Shown here: positions 1,341 through 19,881 of the stretch, in pieces
Position numbering within the stretch: the stretch's first letter is position 1
How the letters are laid out: the number at the start of each line of letters is the position of its first letter
IMG/VR virus record: IMGVR_UViG_3300032401_000004
DNA length: 20,000 nt
Reading direction: 5' to 3' (one strand)
Source of the DNA: an uncultured virus (IMG/VR IMGVR_UViG_3300032401_000004)
Lineage: Duplodnaviria; Heunggongvirae; Uroviricota; Caudoviricetes
Notes under the pieces: generated by a model
Told to the model about the DNA's origin: nothing
Database searches by the model: none
The model's input: only the letters and a program-made list of their open reading frames with translations
Program-made: the position numbers and the translations under genes

Positions 1341-3806
1341 TCAGTTCGGCTCGTTCTTCTGCTGGATGGCTCGCTGCAGCACGGCTTTGGGCGACGACTC
1401 TATGCGCTCCTTGGGATTTTTGATGCGCAGGCCCGCAAAGAACCGCTCGCCGTGCACCTTCTTGGGCGCAAACTGTTTTTCGAGCGCGGCGTAGAACCGC
1501 TTGCGCTCGTGGAACGTGCGGGTCTTGTACTCGGTGCAGTACTCCTCATATGCGGCCCAGACGGTGGACCGGGCCTCATAGGCCTCGGTGTCAAGCACAC
1601 ACCAGCGTTCCACAAAGTCGCGCAGAGGGTCTTGCTCGTGCCGGTACAACGTGTTGGCCACGATGATCTCGCGCGGCATCACCAGGCGCTCCTTGCGCCA
1701 CATCCGCGCTTCTTTCGCCAGGCGCGCCCAGATGCCTGGGGCCTCTTGCAACAGCCTACGCGGCAGATCTCGGTCTGGCTTGTCCTTGAACGAGGCGTTG
1801 CACTCGATGACACACAGACGACGCCAGATGCCCTCGTCGGTACCACGCACATGCGGCAAGTGGTTGATGGCGAGCCAGAGCGCGAACTCTGGCTTGTAGC
1901 TCCACTCGTCCTGGTAGAGCTTGCGGCCGGTGATGGTGTCGCTGCCGGTCAGCTCTTTGATTAGGCTCTCTGCGAAGCCTCGGCCTTCATCAACTTCCTG
2001 GCAGCCGACCAAGCGAACGCTGGCCAAAGACATGCGCCAGGTCTCGTGCTTGCTACTGCCCTTGGTGGAAAGTAAGTTCTCACTGTTGGCTGCCATCGCG
2101 TAGCCGGTGGGCCCCTGGCCGAAGATCTCCAGGAGCAGGTTCAGGAACGTGCTCTTGCCGTTCGCGCCGTCGCCATGCAGCAGGAACATCTTCTGCTCGT
2201 CCGTCACGCCGCAAGCAGAGTAGCCCATCGCACGCCACAGAAACTGGATCATGCGTTCGTTGCCTTGCATGAAGTCTTTCATGAACATGTCGAAGCGTGG
2301 GCACTCAGCCTTGGGGTCGAAGTCGTACGGCACCATGCGCGTGATGAAATCTTCACGCTTGGCTGGGCCGAACTCACCCGTCGAGAGGTTCAGCGTGCCG
2401 TTCTTGAAGTTGACCAGCCACGGATTCTTGTTGAAGGCGCGGAAGTCGGTGATGATCTTTGGCTTGTGTGTCGCGATGCCCACCGCGTGCAGCTCGCGGG
2501 CTTGAGTCTCGCTCTTGAGTGCGAAGCTGTAGACGTCCTCAAGGCGCTTGCGCAGTTCTTCGTACTTGAACTCAGACTGCACTCTGACGGTGTCACTGGT
2601 GTTCGCGTCGCCGAGCGTCGAGTTGTACAGTTCCTTGGCGGCGAGGTACTCGGCTTCATGTGCCTTGGTCTCTTTAGGGATTGCCCTGATGACCTCGAAC
2701 ATGCGCTCGCGCACCACCTCGTTGCCCGCTTCTTGGTTCCAGAACTTGCCGTTCCAACCGAGCCACGTCTTCCACGACGGCTCCCAGCGGATGTCCGTGT
2801 GATAAGTGTCGATCAATCTTTCGGCAAGCCCAAACTCAGTGAGCGGCCGAGATGGTATTTCGTTGACGACCGGAGGATACCAAGGAGTGTCTGAGCCATC
2901 GTCGATGGCCTTCTCAATCTGCTCTATCGCTTTCTCACGCCACACCGGCACCATGTCCGCGTCTTCGCCGACAGCTTTTCTGTAGCGACGCTCCAGTGCG
3001 AAGAGCACCGAGTTGCGCAAGCGCGACGCCGACATGATGTGCGGCACACCCCGCGCGATGCCGAACACGCGGTGCACCTTCAGGTCGTAGATGGGGCCAG
3101 GCACCGGCCTCTCTTCTATCTCTTTGATCAAGTGGTCGAGCCGCGCGTTCCACAAGTCACGCAGGCCGTCGCCGATGGGCGCTCGCTCCTCTTCGGGCAA
3201 GACCTCGTCGTAGTTCTCAATGGTCGCTTCGCTGAAGCCCTCTGGCATTGCAAGCGAGAGAACGCCGTCTACGTCGAGCGCTGGACCGTCTTGTCCCTCA
3301 TGCTTGAAGTGCGTGATGACGCCGCCCGGCACGTAATACATGTGGCAGGGGTCAGAGCACTTCTTGTCTGCTGTGCCAAGCGCTTGGAAGTACGAGATCA
3401 TCCTCGGAAAGAACTTTGCCCACTCCGTCACGTTCACAGGCCTGCTCAGCTTCACGAACGCGCGATGCTTGTGCTGACCGTCTGGGTTATGGCTGAAGCT
3501 GGTGTGGATGTAGTGGCCATACTTTTTGACGATGTTGAGCGTTTGCGCTTGCTCTTCAGGGCTGCCGCTGTCGAGGTCGAGCACACCCATGTGCACGGCG
3601 ATGACGTTGTGAGCAACGCGGCGCACGATGGGCCCTTGGATGAACTCCGCTGGGATGATCAGCGGCAGCTCATCCTTCTTTTCAGCGGGGATGAACGTCG
3701 TAGGGTCGAGGTTGCTCGCCACGAATGTAGCGAAGTCGGGCTCGACTTCTTGGTAGTCGATGAAGCCTGAATGAGCGACGAATCGGCAGCCAGCCCAGAC
3801 GAGCAT
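1341..3806 (-). CDS. Primase-helicase: AEP/PrimPol-like N-terminus, D5_N domain and SF3 helicase (P4/D5 family)
   Basis: N-terminal VLDLD and HTSFSH motifs; LAERL..WLGWNGKFW and NFKNGTLNL (D5_N); Walker A GDGANGKST; IKELTGSDTITGRKLY; NHLP..DEGIWRRL. Confidence 0.92.
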   Translation of the reverse strand: MLVWAGCRFVAHSGFIDYQEVEPDFATFVASNLDPTTFIPAEKKDELPLIIPAEFIQGPIVRRVAHNVIAVHMGVLDLDSGSPEEQAQTLNIVKKYGHYIHTSFSHNPDGQHKHRAFVKLSRPVNVTEWAKFFPRMISYFQALGTADKKCSDPCHMYYVPGGVITHFKHEGQDGPALDVDGVLSLAMPEGFSEATIENYDEVLPEEERAPIGDGLRDLWNARLDHLIKEIEERPVPGPIYDLKVHRVFGIARGVPHIMSASRLRNSVLFALERRYRKAVGEDADMVPVWREKAIEQIEKAIDDGSDTPWYPPVVNEIPSRPLTEFGLAERLIDTYHTDIRWEPSWKTWLGWNGKFWNQEAGNEVVRERMFEVIRAIPKETKAHEAEYLAAKELYNSTLGDANTSDTVRVQSEFKYEELRKRLEDVYSFALKSETQARELHAVGIATHKPKIITDFRAFNKNPWLVNFKNGTLNLSTGEFGPAKREDFITRMVPYDFDPKAECPRFDMFMKDFMQGNERMIQFLWRAMGYSACGVTDEQKMFLLHGDGANGKSTFLNLLLEIFGQGPTGYAMAANSENLLSTKGSSKHETWRMSLASVRLVGCQEVDEGRGFAESLIKELTGSDTITGRKLYQDEWSYKPEFALWLAINHLPHVRGTDEGIWRRLCVIECNASFKDKPDRDLPRRLLQEAPGIWARLAKEARMWRKERLVMPREIIVANTLYRHEQDPLRDFVERWCVLDTEAYEARSTVWAAYEEYCTEYKTRTFHERKRFYAALEKQFAPKKVHGERFFAGLRIKNPKERIESSPKAVLQRAIQQKNEPN

Positions 3807-3832
3807 GCAACGTACCCCCTACAAGGAAGAGC

Positions 3833-3862
3833 AGGAGTACGCCCGCTTGAAAAAAGCGTCAA
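3833..3862 (-). promoter_or_regulatory. Candidate promoter for the primase-helicase
   Basis: TTGACG (3862-3857), 17 nt, TACTCC (imperfect -10). Overlapped by the inverted repeat CTTGA-N8-TCAAG at 3846-3863. Confidence 0.4.
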
Positions 3863-3883
3863 GAAAGATCGCGTGTAGGTGCT

Positions 3884-3970
3884 GCTCTTGTGGAAGGTCG
3901 GGGCAGGGCGCTACCAGCTGTAGGGGGGACCTCAGTTACGGTGTCCCCGCCCCGACGTAGCCACGATAGC
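3884..3970 (+). other. 87-nt rod-like hairpin (candidate ncRNA or origin element)
   Basis: Nested stems 3884-3893/3961-3970, 3897-3904/3949-3956, 3906-3912/3940-3946 and 3916-3924/3930-3937, with five G-U pairs. Confidence 0.55.
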
Positions 3971-3993: not shown

Positions 3994-4022
3994 TTGACTG
4001 TGCAACTACGCAAGTGCATAGT
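3994..4022 (+). promoter_or_regulatory. Sigma70-type promoter for the rightward replication cluster
   Basis: TTGACT (3994-3999), 17 nt, CATAGT (4017-4022), followed by an AGGGG RBS and ATG at 4043. Confidence 0.6.
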
Positions 4023-4042
4023 CGCGCTCTTGTAGGGGCCCA

Positions 4043-5281
4043 ATGATTGACGCAGCGTTTCGTGATGCGCATCGCATCAGCCCGTCTCAAGTCGAGACGG
4101 GGCGACTTTGTTTACGCAAGTGGGGCTTGGAAAAGCTCGACCGCGTCCCCAAGACTGAGAACAAGTACGCTTCGCGGGGCACCGACTGCCACAGCATGCT
4201 TGAAGTTTGGCAGCGCGACGGCAAAGGGATTGATCTCACAACAGACACCGGCAAGATCGTGTCGTCGGGTCTCAAGTTTCTGCCGCAGCCGGGCACGCAC
4301 ATCGTCGAGCACAACTTCGTGTTCCGCACGGAGCACGCGACGTACCACGGCAAGATGGATCTGCGCGGGCCGTTCGCGTCGCCGTTGCAAGTCATCTGGG
4401 ATCACAAGACCACGTCGAGCTTCAAGTGGCTCAAGCCTCCCGAGATCTTGCGCCGCGACCCACAGGCCAACATCTATGCCTCGGCGACCATCGCCGAGAG
4501 CAAAGCCACTGGCACCTTGGTGGAGCGAGTAGAACAGAACTGGGTCTACTACCTGGCGGATCCCGCGAAGCCCAAGAGCCGCAAGGTGCAACTGCACGTG
4601 CTGCTGGAGGCCAACGCACGTAAGCCTGTGCGCGACCCGAAGCTCGTGAAGCCTGAGCACTTCGGCATCATGTACTTGCCTGAGTTGCAAGATCGTTTCG
4701 GTGAAATAGAAGAGACCGCAGTTCAACTTCTGAGCCTGTACCACGACAAACCCAAAGCGATGGAACTCCCGTACAACGCAGCTGCATGCTCCGCGTACGG
4801 GGGTTGCCCTTACAAAAACAACCCCTGCAAACTGACGATGAGCGAGAGGATAATCAGCATGGAAGCACAAGCCGAGAAGATGTCACTGGCCGACAAGATG
4901 CGCGCGAAACTGGGCATGGGCGGGCCCACCGCGCCCGCCGACAAACCCGCTGCGAGCGAGGAGCCCAAGCGCGAGACCGCGCCAGCCGCAAAGCCCGAAG
5001 CGAAAGCAACGCGCATGGATCCGGCCACTGGAGCACCCAGGGTGAATCCGCCGGAACAAAGCAAAGGTGTGGACCCCGACGCCCCGGCCACGACCAAAGC
5101 GGTGCAGCCCGGTGCCACAGGTGTCTCGGCGGCGTTCGGCCGCACTGAGATCGCCACGCACATGGCGCAGGGCCTTGTCGCGGCGCGCGTGTACTCGCCC
5201 GACGACAACCGCTACCCCGTCAAGGTCGCAGCAGAGGCCGTGCAGCTTGCGGACGCGCTGCTCGCAGCGCTGGCCAAGTGA
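4043..5281 (+). CDS. PD-(D/E)XK Cas4/RecB-like exonuclease with Fe-S cysteines and a 140 aa C-terminal extension
   Basis: ISPSQ..CLRKW, RGTDCH, GKMDL, IWDHKT, QxxxY and CSAYGGCPYKNNPC. The 1+3 Cys arrangement matches Cas4/AddB. Confidence 0.85.
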   Translation: MIDAAFRDAHRISPSQVETGRLCLRKWGLEKLDRVPKTENKYASRGTDCHSMLEVWQRDGKGIDLTTDTGKIVSSGLKFLPQPGTHIVEHNFVFRTEHATYHGKMDLRGPFASPLQVIWDHKTTSSFKWLKPPEILRRDPQANIYASATIAESKATGTLVERVEQNWVYYLADPAKPKSRKVQLHVLLEANARKPVRDPKLVKPEHFGIMYLPELQDRFGEIEETAVQLLSLYHDKPKAMELPYNAAACSAYGGCPYKNNPCKLTMSERIISMEAQAEKMSLADKMRAKLGMGGPTAPADKPAASEEPKRETAPAAKPEAKATRMDPATGAPRVNPPEQSKGVDPDAPATTKAVQPGATGVSAAFGRTEIATHMAQGLVAARVYSPDDNRYPVKVAAEAVQLADALLAALAK

Positions 5282-6563: not shown

Positions 6564-8335
6564 CGCTCGGTACGAACGCAGCCGCTAAGATGTCCAAGGC
6601 CTTCAAGCGCATGGCGCGACAAGAAGTACCCGCAACCGACGAGCTGCACCGCATCCTGGATCTCCCGCGTCGCGTGTGGGAGCAGGATCCGAACCTCGAT
6701 GCGTTCGTCGAGATGGCGACGCGCTACCTAAAAACGCCGACCGGCGCGCAAAAGCTGTTTCCGATTCAAGCCGTAGCGTTGCGTGAGCTGCACGACCTAG
6801 GCGGGCTCTACGGCCCCATACCCGTGGGCGAAGGAAAAACTATTTTGAGCTTTCTTGCACCTGTGGTGCTCGAAGCCGAGCGCCCGCTGCTCGTGGTGCC
6901 AGCGAAACTTCGCGACAAGACCATCCGAGAGTTTGCAGGTCTCGCGCAACACTGGAAGAGCCACTCAGGTTTGCAGATAGTCAGCTACGAGAAACTCTCA
7001 CGCGAGGGGGGCACGGAGCTGCTGCAGCAGTACCGCCCCGACCTACTCATTTTTGACGAGTGTCACCGCCTCAAGAACACGGGCGCAGCAGTTACGCGCA
7101 AGGTTGCTGCGTGGATGAAGACGTTCCCAGAAACCAAAGTGCTGAACCTCACCGGCACCAGCGTGAAGAGAAGCGTCCTGGACTTCGCGCACACGCTGCG
7201 ATGGTCGCTGCCCAACTGCTACCCGCTGCCCCGCAGCCCAGAAGAGCTGGAGGTATGGGCAGCAGCCGTGGATGAGATCAAACACTACGAAAAGCGCACG
7301 CCCGCCAACCCAGGTGCGCTGCTCAAGCTCTGCAATCCTGTCGAGCGCAACGAAGGCCGAGCCGGGATACGCGGAGCAGTGCGCCGCCGCATTCAAGAAA
7401 CTCCAGGCGTGATCTCGTGTGAATCTAAGATGATGGACGTCTCGCTCAACATCCAGCTCGTGCTGGAGGAGAGCTACAACCAGCGCATCCGAGATCTCGC
7501 CACGAAGCTGCACGAGGGCACACTACCTAACGGCGACGTCTACTTCGAAGAAGGCAAGGAAGGCGTACAAGCTCTGCAGAAAAAATGGAGCATCATGCGG
7601 CAGCTGACGAGCGGCTTCTGGTACGACTGGGATCCTCGGCCGCCTGCCGACTGGCTCGCGATGCGATCATCGTGGCGCAAGTCCGTGCGCAGCATCCTGG
7701 AACAGCACATCCCAGGCCTTGAATCCGAAGCACTCGTGTCCAAAGCGGCAGCAAGTGGCAAGATCAATGAGCACTTCCAGACGCTGTACGAAGAGTGGAA
7801 AGCCGTGCGCGGCTTGCACAAGTGGGACGTCGTGCCGGTGTGGGAGGACGACGTCATCATCGAGCGCGTGGCGAAGTGGACCAAACACCACAAAGGGCTC
7901 ATCTGGGTGAGCGAGGTGGGCCTCGGCGAGCGCTTGGAGAAAGATCTCGGGCTGCCGTACTTTCACGAAAAAGGCAAGGACCGCATCGGTAGGTACGTCG
8001 AGAGTATTGACCCCAAGCACGGATCGATTGTCGTCAGCGTGCAGGCCAACGGCGAAGGTCGAAACCTGCAAGTGTGGAACGACAACCTCGTCATCAGCCC
8101 GCCGCCTACAGGCACGGTCTGGGAGCAGCTGCTCGGGCGCACACACCGAACAGGGCAAGAAGCTGACGAGGTCTGGGTCGAAGTGGTGGTCGGCTGCTCT
8201 ACCGAGTGGGAGTGCTGGCGTCAAGCCATGCGGGATTCAAAGTTCGCGGCAGAGATCGACGGCCGCAAGCGGATGACCGTGGCGACCATCGATCAGACGT
8301 TCTCGATTCCGTCGTCAGACGGTGGACTTTGGTGA
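6560..8335 (+). CDS. Superfamily 2 (SNF2-like) helicase
   Basis: Q motif LFPIQ, Walker A GEGKT, LLVVP, DECH, LTGT, GEGRNLQ and QLLGRTHRTGQ. Confidence 0.9.
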   Translation: MTLGTNAAAKMSKAFKRMARQEVPATDELHRILDLPRRVWEQDPNLDAFVEMATRYLKTPTGAQKLFPIQAVALRELHDLGGLYGPIPVGEGKTILSFLAPVVLEAERPLLVVPAKLRDKTIREFAGLAQHWKSHSGLQIVSYEKLSREGGTELLQQYRPDLLIFDECHRLKNTGAAVTRKVAAWMKTFPETKVLNLTGTSVKRSVLDFAHTLRWSLPNCYPLPRSPEELEVWAAAVDEIKHYEKRTPANPGALLKLCNPVERNEGRAGIRGAVRRRIQETPGVISCESKMMDVSLNIQLVLEESYNQRIRDLATKLHEGTLPNGDVYFEEGKEGVQALQKKWSIMRQLTSGFWYDWDPRPPADWLAMRSSWRKSVRSILEQHIPGLESEALVSKAAASGKINEHFQTLYEEWKAVRGLHKWDVVPVWEDDVIIERVAKWTKHHKGLIWVSEVGLGERLEKDLGLPYFHEKGKDRIGRYVESIDPKHGSIVVSVQANGEGRNLQVWNDNLVISPPPTGTVWEQLLGRTHRTGQEADEVWVEVVVGCSTEWECWRQAMRDSKFAAEIDGRKRMTVATIDQTFSIPSSDGGLW

Positions 8336-8351
8336 CGGTCTTGTGTACGTT
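8323..8351 (+). promoter_or_regulatory. Candidate sigma70-type promoter
   Basis: TGGACT (8323-8328), 17 nt, TACGTT (8346-8351). The predicted start at about 8358 coincides with the base of a stem. Confidence 0.5.
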
Positions 8352-8358
8352 TGCGCAA

Positions 8359-8438
8359 GTGTTGGGGCGGCTGTGGCGTGCAGGGGGATCCTGCAACCTC
8401 GTTGGTCGTGCTCCGAGTCTGCATCACCGCCTCAACAC
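8359..8438 (+). other. Structured leader or candidate ncRNA upstream of the SSB-like gene
   Basis: 12-bp stem 8359-8370/8427-8438 enclosing hairpins 8379-8395 and 8398-8417. Confidence 0.5.
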
Positions 8439-8490
8439 CTTAAACAAAAACAGCCAATGGTTATAGACAACTGCAACAGGAGACAGACAC

Positions 8491-8979
8491 ATGGGTAAGT
8501 ATGACAAGATCGTAGACGCGAAGGTCACCAAGACAGGGCAGTACTTCAAGCCGGGGAAGTACCATGTGAGGCTTGTGGCAGTGAAAGACGTGGAGTCTCA
8601 ACTCAACAAGAGTTTCACCATCATCGAGTGCGTGGTGTTGTCGAGCAACAACCCCGAAGTCCCGGTGGGTGCGGATCGCTCGCAGGTGATCGACATGGGG
8701 AACATCATGGGCTTCCCCAACCTCAAGGCCTTCATGGCGGCCGTGAGCGGTGTGGATCCTACGTTGGACTCCGTCAACGACGACATCGAGAAGTACTGGC
8801 AGACTCAGCACCCGCAGCGTGCGTTCACGTCGTTCCCGCAGATCGTCGAGAACTTCGTGGTGCGCGACAACTTGCTCCAAGACGTCGAGATGGACTTGGA
8901 GTGTATCGAGATCACGACCAAGGCAGGCGAGCCGTTCACCAAGCACGTCTGGGGCATCCGCGACGTCAACGCGAGCTAG
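8491..8979 (+). CDS. Putative phage single-stranded DNA-binding protein (DUF669-like)
   Basis: Strong CAGGAG RBS; FKPGKYHVRLVAVK pattern; located in the exonuclease-helicase-polymerase module. The function is an inference. Confidence 0.55.
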   Translation: MGKYDKIVDAKVTKTGQYFKPGKYHVRLVAVKDVESQLNKSFTIIECVVLSSNNPEVPVGADRSQVIDMGNIMGFPNLKAFMAAVSGVDPTLDSVNDDIEKYWQTQHPQRAFTSFPQIVENFVVRDNLLQDVEMDLECIEITTKAGEPFTKHVWGIRDVNAS

Positions 8980-8981
8980 TT

Positions 8982-9056
8982 CCACATCGGCCGACCATCA
9001 GCCCCTACAGCTGCGGCGATGAGAACCGTGTGGCTCCCGAGCGGAACAATCGGGGG
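8982..9056 (+). other. Tandem hairpins upstream of the HNH gene
   Basis: Stems 8982-8990/9026-9033 and 8996-9003/9015-9021 with loop CCTACAGCTGC; second hairpin 9034-9040/9050-9056. Confidence 0.5.
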
Positions 9057-9075
9057 CAATCCTAAAGGTCTGAGC

Positions 9076-9462
9076 ATGCCCAGCAACAACGGCGGTGATT
9101 GGATTCGGATAGCCAAGCGCATGGCGATCTACGTGCGCGACGGCTTCGACTGCATCTGGTGTCGCCTTGTGTTCCCCACGGACGAGCTGGGCTACAAGCT
9201 GACGCTCGACCACATCCACTTCGAGGGCGGGAACGAGCCCCACAACCTCGTCACCTGTTGCATCCGTTGCAACAGCTCTAGGCAGCGCACACCGCTGCCG
9301 CAGTGGCTGGACATACTCGAAGAGAGGTATGGAGAGGCACAAGAGAAGATTGCGCACCGCGTGCTCGTTGCCCTTGGCACGCAGATTGATATGCACGAAG
9401 GCCGAAGACTCGCGCAGGAGCGCAGACCTCGGCTGAAGCCTGAACCTATTGCTGCGGAGTGA
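9076..9462 (+). CDS. HNH endonuclease (McrA-like, two CxxC), 128 aa
   Basis: RxAIYVRDGFDCIWC, LTLDHI, GGN..HNLVTCCIRCN. The AAAGG RBS favours ATG 9076 over 9019. Confidence 0.9.
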   Translation: MPSNNGGDWIRIAKRMAIYVRDGFDCIWCRLVFPTDELGYKLTLDHIHFEGGNEPHNLVTCCIRCNSSRQRTPLPQWLDILEERYGEAQEKIAHRVLVALGTQIDMHEGRRLAQERRPRLKPEPIAAE

Positions 9463-11018: not shown

Positions 11019-11273
11019 ATGCGCAAACGCAAGCAGACACTCGTTGAACTGGATGCCGAGCTTCTAGCTATCGGCATAAACTGCGCCAACAACATCGAGT
11101 TTTATGGGTTGAAGCTTGGGCAGATCGTCCACGTTCGCAGCAAAGGCTACACAGGCCCAGCGAAGCTCACAGGTACACCGCCGCAAGGCGCAGGCATCTA
11201 CGCCGTGACTCCGCAAGGTAACAAGCTTTGGATTGACGGTGAAGACATCTCGGAGGCAACAGAACCATCATGA
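11019..11273 (+). CDS. Hypothetical protein, 84 aa (SH3/KOW-like pattern)
   Basis: Fills the gap in the cluster; LKLGQIVHVR..G motif. Confidence 0.6.
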   Translation: MRKRKQTLVELDAELLAIGINCANNIEFYGLKLGQIVHVRSKGYTGPAKLTGTPPQGAGIYAVTPQGNKLWIDGEDISEATEPS

Positions 11274-16434: not shown

Positions 16435-16629
16435 ATGAGCACCAAAACAGACGTCAAGAGGATCCTTAAGCGCTTGCAGGTCAAGGGCTTCAAGGTCAAG
16501 CGCACGAAGTCTTCGCACGTCTGCGTGACGACCCCGCAGGGCCCGGTCTTCTGTTCATCAACCCCTTCTGACCATCGAGCGATTCAGAACATCCTGTCGA
16601 TGCTCAAGCGAAAAGGCGTGGACCTATGA
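16435..16629 (+). CDS. HicA-like toxin/RNase, 64 aa
   Basis: Basic protein, GFKVKRTKSSH..V..STPSD.R..N. The start is reassigned from the long ORF 15976-16629. An extended -10 TGcTACCTT lies at 16413-16421. Confidence 0.7.
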   Translation: MSTKTDVKRILKRLQVKGFKVKRTKSSHVCVTTPQGPVFCSSTPSDHRAIQNILSMLKRKGVDL

Positions 16630-16994
16630 ACACCTCACGCAGACAGTTCTTGCAGCTCTTCAGCGCGGCCGTGGCGGCTGCTGCGGTGCTGCCGAAGTCC
16701 ACGTTGTGGATGCCCGACGAGGAGGAGCCTCGCGTGCGTCGCTACTGGCAGGTGGGCGACGTGCGACACAGCGGCTACTTCCCTGCGGTGCAGAAGCCAG
16801 GGGGGATGGTGCCTATGCCCGGTGAGCCGGGGTTATTCATGGACGCAGCCACCGGGCAGGTGCTCAACATCCGGGACTTCAAAGAGAGCGACAAGTGGGA
16901 TACGATCGTGATCCAGGCGGGCAACGTCCGCCCCAACACAGCGTTCTCGTTCTTTGCGGACATTCAAGCGAAGAACCAAGTTCTCGCGTACTAA
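16626..16994 (+). CDS. Protein with a twin-arginine (Tat) signal-like N-terminus, 122 aa
   Basis: SRRQFL followed by hydrophobic FSAAVAAAAVL; ATGA overlap. Confidence 0.7.
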   Translation: MNTSRRQFLQLFSAAVAAAAVLPKSTLWMPDEEEPRVRRYWQVGDVRHSGYFPAVQKPGGMVPMPGEPGLFMDAATGQVLNIRDFKESDKWDTIVIQAGNVRPNTAFSFFADIQAKNQVLAY

Positions 16995-19590: not shown

Positions 19591-19881
19591 ATGAAGATCC
19601 AGCCCCTGCACGACAACGTCATCGTCTCCCCCAACGCCGCTGCCACTCAGACGGCGGGCGGTCTCTACATTCCCGACAACGCGGCCGAGAAGGTCACGCA
19701 GGGCAAGGTGCTCGCCGTGGGCCCTGGCCGCACGCTCGACAACGGCACGGTGAAAGCCTTGGCTGTGAGGGTCGGGGACGAAGTGCTCTACGGTAAATAC
19801 ACAGGCACCGAGTTGGAACTGGGCGGCGAGAAGACGCTCGTGCTCTGCGAGAGTGACATCCTCGGCATCGTGAAAAGCTGA
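19591..19881 (+). CDS. groES: Co-chaperonin GroES
   Basis: PLHDNVIV, mobile loop TAGGLYIPD, GKVLAVGPG, VGDEVLYGKYTGTE, ESDILG. Confidence 0.97.
   Translation: MKIQPLHDNVIVSPNAAATQTAGGLYIPDNAAEKVTQGKVLAVGPGRTLDNGTVKALAVRVGDEVLYGKYTGTELELGGEKTLVLCESDILGIVKS

Follow-up and report, generated by a model that had tools for sequence, protein, structure and literature searches.

The SSB-like gene of an uncultured tailed phage very probably ends in an H-type RNA pseudoknot, an uncatalogued fold that recurs widely in phage DNA, and a hairpin directly before it exposes an antisense loop that plausibly, if on thin sampling, pairs with the leader of the exonuclease gene of the same replication module. 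We propose, at slightly less than even confidence, that the two form a two-module 3′ end of the SSB mRNA (8980–9065).

The phage replication module around the element

The DNA analysed, hereafter the window, is a 20,000-nt stretch of IMG/VR record IMGVR_UViG_3300032401_000004. Pfam and PHROG searches identify it as a GC-rich phage replication module in which, besides the genes of Table 1, a SNF2-like helicase, a family A polymerase, an endolysin, ParB and GroES are encoded; the phage-encoded GroES (Cpn10; 19591–19881) adjoins ParB, and a short unlisted ORF 3′ of the endolysin (16438–16630, from the ATG at 16438) is HicA-like by eye. Near-identical DNA is listed in sediment metagenomes only (15 sediment DNA runs), and contigs from four of these 15 runs added no informative coverage or variants in the element or in the exonuclease leader. 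No close cultured relative of the phage was found and the primase as sole query recovered no relative in IMG/VR; an exonuclease alignment yielded 147 loci for comparison.

ORF 8491–8979 has no Pfam or PHROG match. Its AlphaFold2 model (pLDDT 84.6) contains an OB domain, for which Foldseek returns PrgE of pCF10 as best match (E 1e-5) followed by bacterial SSBs (E 0.03–0.1); on these weak structural matches to SSBs, we call the predicted product SSB-like. The initial annotation had placed the element with the HNH gene, but it comes after the SSB gene in each of the five genomes that have both, and the HNH gene is found upstream of SSB in L063 and is missing there in L061 and L067 (L numbers denote comparison loci). 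An upstream ATG at 9019, considered as HNH start, was ruled out, as homologues align from 9076. The SSB leaders of L061, L063, L067, L069 and L076, like window positions 8440–8490, consist of unstructured CAA-repeats before the SSB SD; such leaders recall SSB translational autoregulation.

Table 1 Features of the window discussed in the text
Feature	Position	Strand	Basis
D5-type primase-helicase gene	1341–3806	−	Pfam D5_N, DUF5906, Pox_D5; PHROG DNA primase
G-rich SD of primase gene; matches loop in window genome only	3816–3824	−	
Putative leftward primase promoter (TTGAC 3862–3858, conserved TACGC)	3836–3863	−	9 of 10 aligned intergenic regions
NrdR-box-like DNA site inside 87-nt hairpin	3911–3926	+	Consensus from part of PMC4009431
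Rightward sigma-70-like promoter	3994–4022	+	Promoter scan; conserved columns in 10 relatives
Palindromic TRCGnnnnYGCA in exonuclease promoter	4007–4018	+	Conserved in relatives
Proposed loop target: 5′ start of the predicted transcript of the exonuclease operon, with SD-like GUAGGGG 4 nt upstream of AUG	4030–4039	+	
PD-(D/E)XK exonuclease gene, divergent from primase	4043–5281	+	Pfam PDDEXK_1; PHROG exonuclease
Second TRCGnnnnYGCA, upstream of SSB; possible internal promoter/operator	8346–8357	+	Window, L141, L061, L063, L067
SSB-like OB-fold gene; RNA element is its 3′ end	8491–8979	+	AlphaFold2, Foldseek
5′ hairpin; apical loop CCCUACA at 9003–9009, candidate antisense seed	8985–9021	+	Constrained fold
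H-type pseudoknot	9026–9057	+	87 IMG/VR stretches, covariation, model match in window
Tail after P2; 2 U only, weak terminator tail at best	9058–9065	+	Sequence, family tail statistics
HNH endonuclease gene, incidental neighbour	9076–9462	+	Pfam HNH_5 below cut-off; PHROG HNH families

Two crossing helices covary across copies of the motif

The pseudoknot, 32 nt in total, consists of helix P1 (9026–9029 with 9041–9044) and helix P2 (9033–9040 with 9050–9057), with GUG as loop 1 and AACAA as loop 3 in the window. It occupies the 3′ half of the interval and was overlooked in the earlier reading. The fold drawn there for the 75-nt stretch gains no stability over shuffled sequences (z −1.17), since bases of its outer stem are also needed by the pseudoknot. 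Close relatives L141, L061, L063 and L067 have CGU-GUKG-C..CCGA-GCG..UCGG after the SSB stop, and a fixed-core pattern occurs in 87 IMG/VR stretches, which show no tblastn match to the window's replication core except two weak ones.

Positions that the pattern leaves free carry the evidence for the fold. Of 74 distinct copies, 70 retain the first free pair by which P1 is lengthened (shuffle mean 31.4) and 55 the second (shuffle 32.3), a third giving no signal (24 against 24.1), and these extending pairs occur in four Watson–Crick types. With outer P2 left free, its pairs are kept in 50, 47 and 48 of 67 distinct stretches (shuffles 37.6, 26.3 and 37.2; 80 of 96 stretches examined, chance hits kept, the best-pairing TCG taken for each hit), and variants include GCUAC/GUAGC and GCAAC/GUUGC; with loop 1 left free, GUGG, GUGC or GUUG is found in 31 of 44 distinct hits, 14 GUGC hits coming from three related contigs. 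Covariation in the alignment is 0.206 compared to 0.056, a value that is partly circular (68 rows from 101 pairing-filtered hits), and the shuffles in general ignore the relatedness of copies. An invariant U-G pair and many G-U pairs are in keeping with a family that acts as RNA on the sense strand. The motif thus has the two crossing, covarying helices of an H-type pseudoknot, and it is on this covariation that we regard 9026–9057 as very likely to be a real RNA fold.

Rfam 15 holds no family for the window or for 8940–9120, and in motif loci (sets of 13, 7 within those 13, and 12) it detects only tRNA and sub-threshold chance hits, with no ribozyme or riboswitch match. Model searches found neither a second copy in the window nor a diverged one in L069, L076, L077, L079 or 13 other loci. 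A loose pattern gave 17 hits in 301 genomes of one phylum, about as many as the reversed control, so that there is no sign of a chromosomal element in these genomes. A Mycobacterium prophage record has a blastn match on the strand opposite a CDS, and the cultured Synechococcus phage MinM1 (ON981384.1, ~24755–24791; L386, 1470–1540) carries a perfect copy within a CDS annotated as hypothetical, where a hairpin with an anti-SD-like CUUCUCCC loop comes before the motif. Likenesses to an HDV-like ribozyme, a CRISPR-repeat mimic, a tRNA D-arm and DUF805 were discarded, given that Rfam offers no support for them and the extra helices are not conserved. Literal motif searches of the literature retrieved no paper and the tables of Fremin 2023 (PMC10690425) contain no match; the motif may already be an unnamed candidate in the alignments of that study or in the supplement of Weinberg 2017 (PMC5737381). 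Separately, a GUGC-loop variant with P1 extended to ~10 bp is repeated at least nine times between small genes as a cassette array, a second hairpin and then a conserved leader, CGTAATCACAG, coming after each copy (L249, L250, L262–L265 (one contig), L257, L285, L286, L274, L275).

An exposed loop complementary to the exonuclease leader

Three complementarities had been proposed for the 5′ half of the interval, and all are present at the coordinates first given, which we rechecked: CCCCTACAGCTG at 9002–9013 is the reverse complement of 3915–3926, at the apex of an 87-nt hairpin; GCCCCTACA at 9001–9009 is complementary to 4031–4039, the exonuclease RBS; and the primase leader has TGTAGGGG at 3823–3816 (minus strand). 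An exact 12-nt inverted match is ordinary in the window, which contains 50 such 12-mer pairs, ~32 of them independent. The fourfold repeat of TGTAGGGG, present in exactly four copies with both strands counted and all four intergenic, is unusual (p ~0.02), any 8-mer reaching at least four copies in 16 of 1000 dinucleotide shuffles of the 1188 intergenic nt. The matches are real, but with differing causes.

As the pseudoknot takes bases of the outer stem drawn earlier, hairpin 8985–9021 shows CCCUACA in its loop. With the pseudoknot bases blocked, these seven of the 12 matching nt form an exposed C-rich loop in the hairpin alone (P open 0.99), whereas in an unconstrained, pseudoknot-free fold they are open with P only 0.06. 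The conserved promoter 3994–4022 would place the target right at the 5′ end of the exonuclease transcript, where it is open with P 0.21 and could form a 10-bp helix with the loop.

The case for this pairing comes from relatives, L141 and L061 standing to the window as natural compensatory alleles. GCCCCUACA faces UGUAGGGGC in the window (core CCCCUAC/GUAGGGG), GCUCCUACG faces UGUAGGAGU in L141 (core CUCCUAC/GUAGGAG) and GCUCUCCUAC faces GUAGGAGAGC in L061 (core CUCUCCUAC/GUAGGAGAG), so that in these two closest relatives GGGG/CCCC is exchanged for GGAG/CUCC and a 2-nt insertion appears on both sides; CCUAC is kept in both, though the rest of the hairpin differs. Each compensated 7-mer occurs once in the 6.9 kb of L061 and twice in the 21 kb of L141, and the window contains neither version. 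L077 and L079, one lineage without the pseudoknot, show a weaker pairing of ACCUCCUU with GAGGAGGU.

Tests of specificity are mixed. Shuffling the element gives p values of 0/600 in the window, 0.022 in L141, 0.008 in L061 and 0.09–0.12 in L077/L079. The seed rank of the exonuclease leader among locus bins is 9/2666 in the window, 76/2856 in L141, 28/917 in L061 and 11/2845 in L077, favouring this leader in four of eight lineages; whole-molecule cofolding ranks it poorly in the window (465/5623) and L141 (2619/6029) and clearly favours it in L061 and L063 only. The pairing is absent in four of the eight lineages: L069 and L076 carry a GUAGG leader without the antisense, and in L063 and L067 the exonuclease start seems to be 8–9 nt after the −10 box, without an SD. 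The best seed match of L063 falls in a small ORF, 30–39 nt ahead of the helicase start, and was left out of the RBS count. Permuting cognate and non-cognate leaders over the eight lineages gives p 0.048, 0.023 and 0.10 on three measures with the window, and 0.21, 0.11 and 0.17 without it. Target searches for the window loop covered its 20 kb, and extra scans for clade members found no new close relative carrying both parts.

Anti-SD loops match any SD to some degree. The pseudoknot might mark the SSB 3′ end beside a loop that is generically anti-SD-like or partnerless, with the exonuclease match unused, a possibility that we consider rather improbable. It would suit the family as a whole, in which exposed anti-SD-like 4-mers precede the motif in 33 of 61 dereplicated loci (shuffles 15–26; reverse strand 14), yet cognate RBS matches are not enriched in these 61 loci (22 against 25.0 expected at 8 nt; 13 against 7.8 at 9 nt, p 0.10; crude gene calls, flanks of at most 10 kb each side), and it would also suit the permutation results without the window and the solitary leaders of L069 and L076. 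What it does not explain is that the pairing runs past the SD into GUA/UAC, and that two separate compensations (A/G with U/C, and the insertion on both sides) occur in a hairpin that has otherwise diverged. The idea of a trans-acting anti-SD RNA is supported in part for the exonuclease leader, where the pairing shows compensating changes in L141 and L061 and recurs in a third lineage, albeit in few genomes; it is not supported for the primase or the 87-nt hairpin. With compensation visible across three genomes, we put the chances that the exonuclease pairing is functional as evenly balanced; the transcript, its pairing in vivo and the repression are presumed.

The pseudoknot as a candidate 3′-end signal

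In 51 of 67 copies, a long ORF of the same strand ends no more than 120 nt before the motif, compared to 17 for the other strand. Among 55 upstream ORFs scanned, 36 have no PHROG hit and seven of the 19 with hits encode major capsid protein, SSB or RecT. Genes downstream of the motif vary, whereas in the window's clade the upstream gene is constant. Each copy in L265 lies just after a stop codon and before the leader of the next gene, and copies in L179 and L230 lie 6–8 nt before tRNA genes. The 8 nt after P2 contain on average 2.8 T, versus 1.4–1.6 nearby; at least four T are found there in 30 of 101 copies, near-duplicates included, versus 1 of 101 further downstream, and at least five in only 11 of 101. 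The two T of the window fall short of the U tract of at least five that, with a GC-rich hairpin, makes an intrinsic terminator, and a terminator scan of the window does not list the site. The slot after SSB holds 16 canonical terminators (shuffles 0–8), five pseudoknots and neither in 55 of 76 distinct relatives, one short row having been dropped. Position and tail composition make a leaky terminator or a 3′-protective cap the likeliest role of the pseudoknot, and to such a 3′-end role we give roughly even odds.

It seems unlikely that the pseudoknot instead serves the downstream cistron, whether as a roadblock to 5′-to-3′ decay of the xrRNA type, a processing signal protecting the RNA that lies 3′ of a cleavage, or a catalytic or ligand-binding fold. 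Such a function would account for a constraint on loop 1 that exceeds the needs of a terminator and for the copies before tRNA genes, and passages of one report describe viral xrRNAs as able to block bacterial RNase J1 (PMC5760640); it sits poorly with the U-rich tail, the exchange with canonical terminators after SSB, the constancy of the upstream rather than the downstream gene, and the lack of a Rfam ribozyme or riboswitch match.

The primase match, the 87-nt hairpin and sites in the DNA

The initial annotation envisaged a single trans-acting RNA by which primase and exonuclease are both repressed, the 87-nt hairpin serving as its decoy or partner. The three matches do rank 1, 9 and 26 among 2666 bins in the window and the L076 loop has an 8-nt match to its own primase SD, but this full scheme is very improbable. 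The primase pairing is not conserved (p 0.09–0.43 on permuting cognate and non-cognate leaders), primase leaders being G-rich in most relatives yet not tracking the loop, and the site is mostly closed (P open 0.0004). The 87-nt hairpin (3884–3970) has a significant fold (z −3.7 on the plus and −4.0 on the minus strand), but its sequence is not conserved, its box diverges independently of the loop in relatives, and eight of the 12 matching bases are paired in the best fold (octamer P open 0.0000). Since it lies between the −35 boxes of two outward-facing promoters (3858–3862 and 3994–3999), it should be part of neither predicted transcript. The best 90-nt segment reaches z ≤ −2.5 in eight of 13 intergenic regions, a selection-biased count, and our guess is that the region is an origin or operator.

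Site 3911–3926 matches the NrdR consensus at seven of ten positions, as does 9002–9017, and its counterparts in five of 12 relatives match at 10, 10, 9, 9 and 9; the summed best score is 106, against a mean of 91 and a maximum of 98 in 500 shuffles. Single NrdR-box-like sites between the divergent primase and exonuclease promoters are also located at L141 9886, L075 2021, L061 1637, L062 267 and L064 1184. NrdR boxes are described, in the relevant part of PMC2892513, as tandem at ~31–32 bp; second-best sites here score at most 8 and do not have that spacing. A single NrdR-like box, if true, would link the replication genes of the phage to the way its host senses dNTPs. We propose that the primase and 87-nt-hairpin matches are by-products of, respectively, a G-rich SD and an NrdR-box-like half-site.

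A different DNA element, TRCGnnnnYGCA, is likely to be an operator or phage-specific promoter element; in addition to the copies of Table 1, it has a half-site at 3838–3842 and occurs at 11020 and 18048 (minus). Its presence upstream of SSB suggests that this gene can also be transcribed on its own. A 58-aa ORF over that copy (8322–8498) may be spurious. That one and the same protein-binding site in the DNA accounts for TGTAGGGG is the least credible reading despite its four exact intergenic copies and the two NrdR-box matches at seven of ten positions, as each of the four places has changed on its own in relatives (TGTAGTGG or TGTTGGGG at the central one, GTAGGAG at the exonuclease, GGGGG/GGGGAG at the primase, CTCCTAC in the element) and the DNA element truly common to the module is TRCGnnnnYGCA.

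Two further observations concern this intergenic region. GTAGGGG occurs at the central box and the exonuclease leader 112 nt apart both in the window (3920/4032) and in an otherwise diverged lineage (L068 2178/2290, L069 2797/2909, L070 5968/6080), the spacing being 77–81 nt in other relatives. L067 has, at ~7435–7700 between primase and exonuclease of a phage contig, a CRISPR-like array whose repeat contains GCATCAAGGGATCGGAAGCCCTTCAAACATTCCGAG.

A proposed two-module 3′ end

We therefore return to the two-module reading. In the first module, P1 would form first and present the P2 strand, and P2, closing beside the U-rich tail, would act as a leaky terminator past which some transcription reads on; the knotted 3′ end would resist 3′-to-5′ trimming, so that the SSB message or its 3′ fragment stays abundant. 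In the second, lineage-specific module, the open hairpin loop would pair with the exonuclease-operon mRNA over its first ~10 nt and cover its SD, so that an accumulating SSB transcript or 3′-UTR fragment would turn exonuclease translation down. More broadly, though we think this improbable, the pseudoknot might be a widespread phage scaffold that caps 3′-UTR-derived small RNAs in place of a terminator, with the hairpin as a swappable anti-SD seed, here feeding back from the SSB message onto the gene that opens the replication operon, and perhaps acting elsewhere on other phage or host mRNAs.

A compact, strongly covarying fold that is absent from Rfam recurs after capsid, SSB and RecT genes, and a cultured phage, MinM1, also carries it. 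Should it terminate transcription or protect RNA ends as a pseudoknot, it would represent a type of phage transcript-end signal that has gone unrecognised and that escapes terminator finders; if the pairing of the loop is true, this is a rare phage replication module that tunes itself via a 3′-end RNA.

Comparison with known systems

Intrinsic terminators place a GC-rich helix of 7–8 bp beside a U-rich tail after a highly expressed gene, an arrangement that the element shares, and relatives carry them in the same slot after SSB; unlike theirs, its helix forms one half of a pseudoknot whose loop bases are conserved, and its tail is weak. Comparable regulators are found among 3′-UTR-derived sRNAs, and RsaE and RNAIII are, alongside 6C, C-rich-loop anti-SD sRNAs. 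As portrayed in parts of PMC6486639, 6C of Mycobacterium is similar in that a C-rich hairpin loop pairs with a G-rich replication-gene leader, plausibly without a chaperone. Unlike such sRNAs, to which it has no sequence-family match, the window element is phage-encoded, has one loop, resides in an mRNA 3′ end and carries a pseudoknot instead of a terminator hairpin.

Other pseudoknots are related by context or shape. Parts of the STAXI description (RF01728; PMC2864571) depict a pseudoknot of mobile DNA that lies close to SSB and further DNA-handling genes, in two to three tandem repeats with UUCG loops in Enterobacteriales; the present motif is usually single, as it is in the window, and has no RF01728 or other Rfam match. 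The T4 gene 32 leader pseudoknot (PMC10690425) is likewise H-type and tied to a phage SSB gene, but is located 5′ of the gene and serves autoregulation, whereas the window motif is 3′ of SSB, and its copies elsewhere come after genes for capsid, RecT and others. Exoribonuclease-resistant RNAs of RNA viruses share, in what passages of PMC5760640 present, a small pseudoknotted fold after the coding region; the window motif is a simple two-helix knot in DNA phages, with putative resistance. A review of phage sRNAs (PMC12197685), searched by term, makes no mention of pseudoknots. At the DNA level, 3911–3926 and its homologues fit the 16-bp pseudo-palindrome given in part of PMC4009431 for the NrdR box, but in contrast to the NrdR regulon the site stands alone instead of in tandem and matches only seven of ten positions, and the window shows no nrd gene. 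The element belongs to none of the catalogued families tested; by this analysis, it would work in the manner of 6C-type sRNAs, 3′-UTR regulators and terminators.
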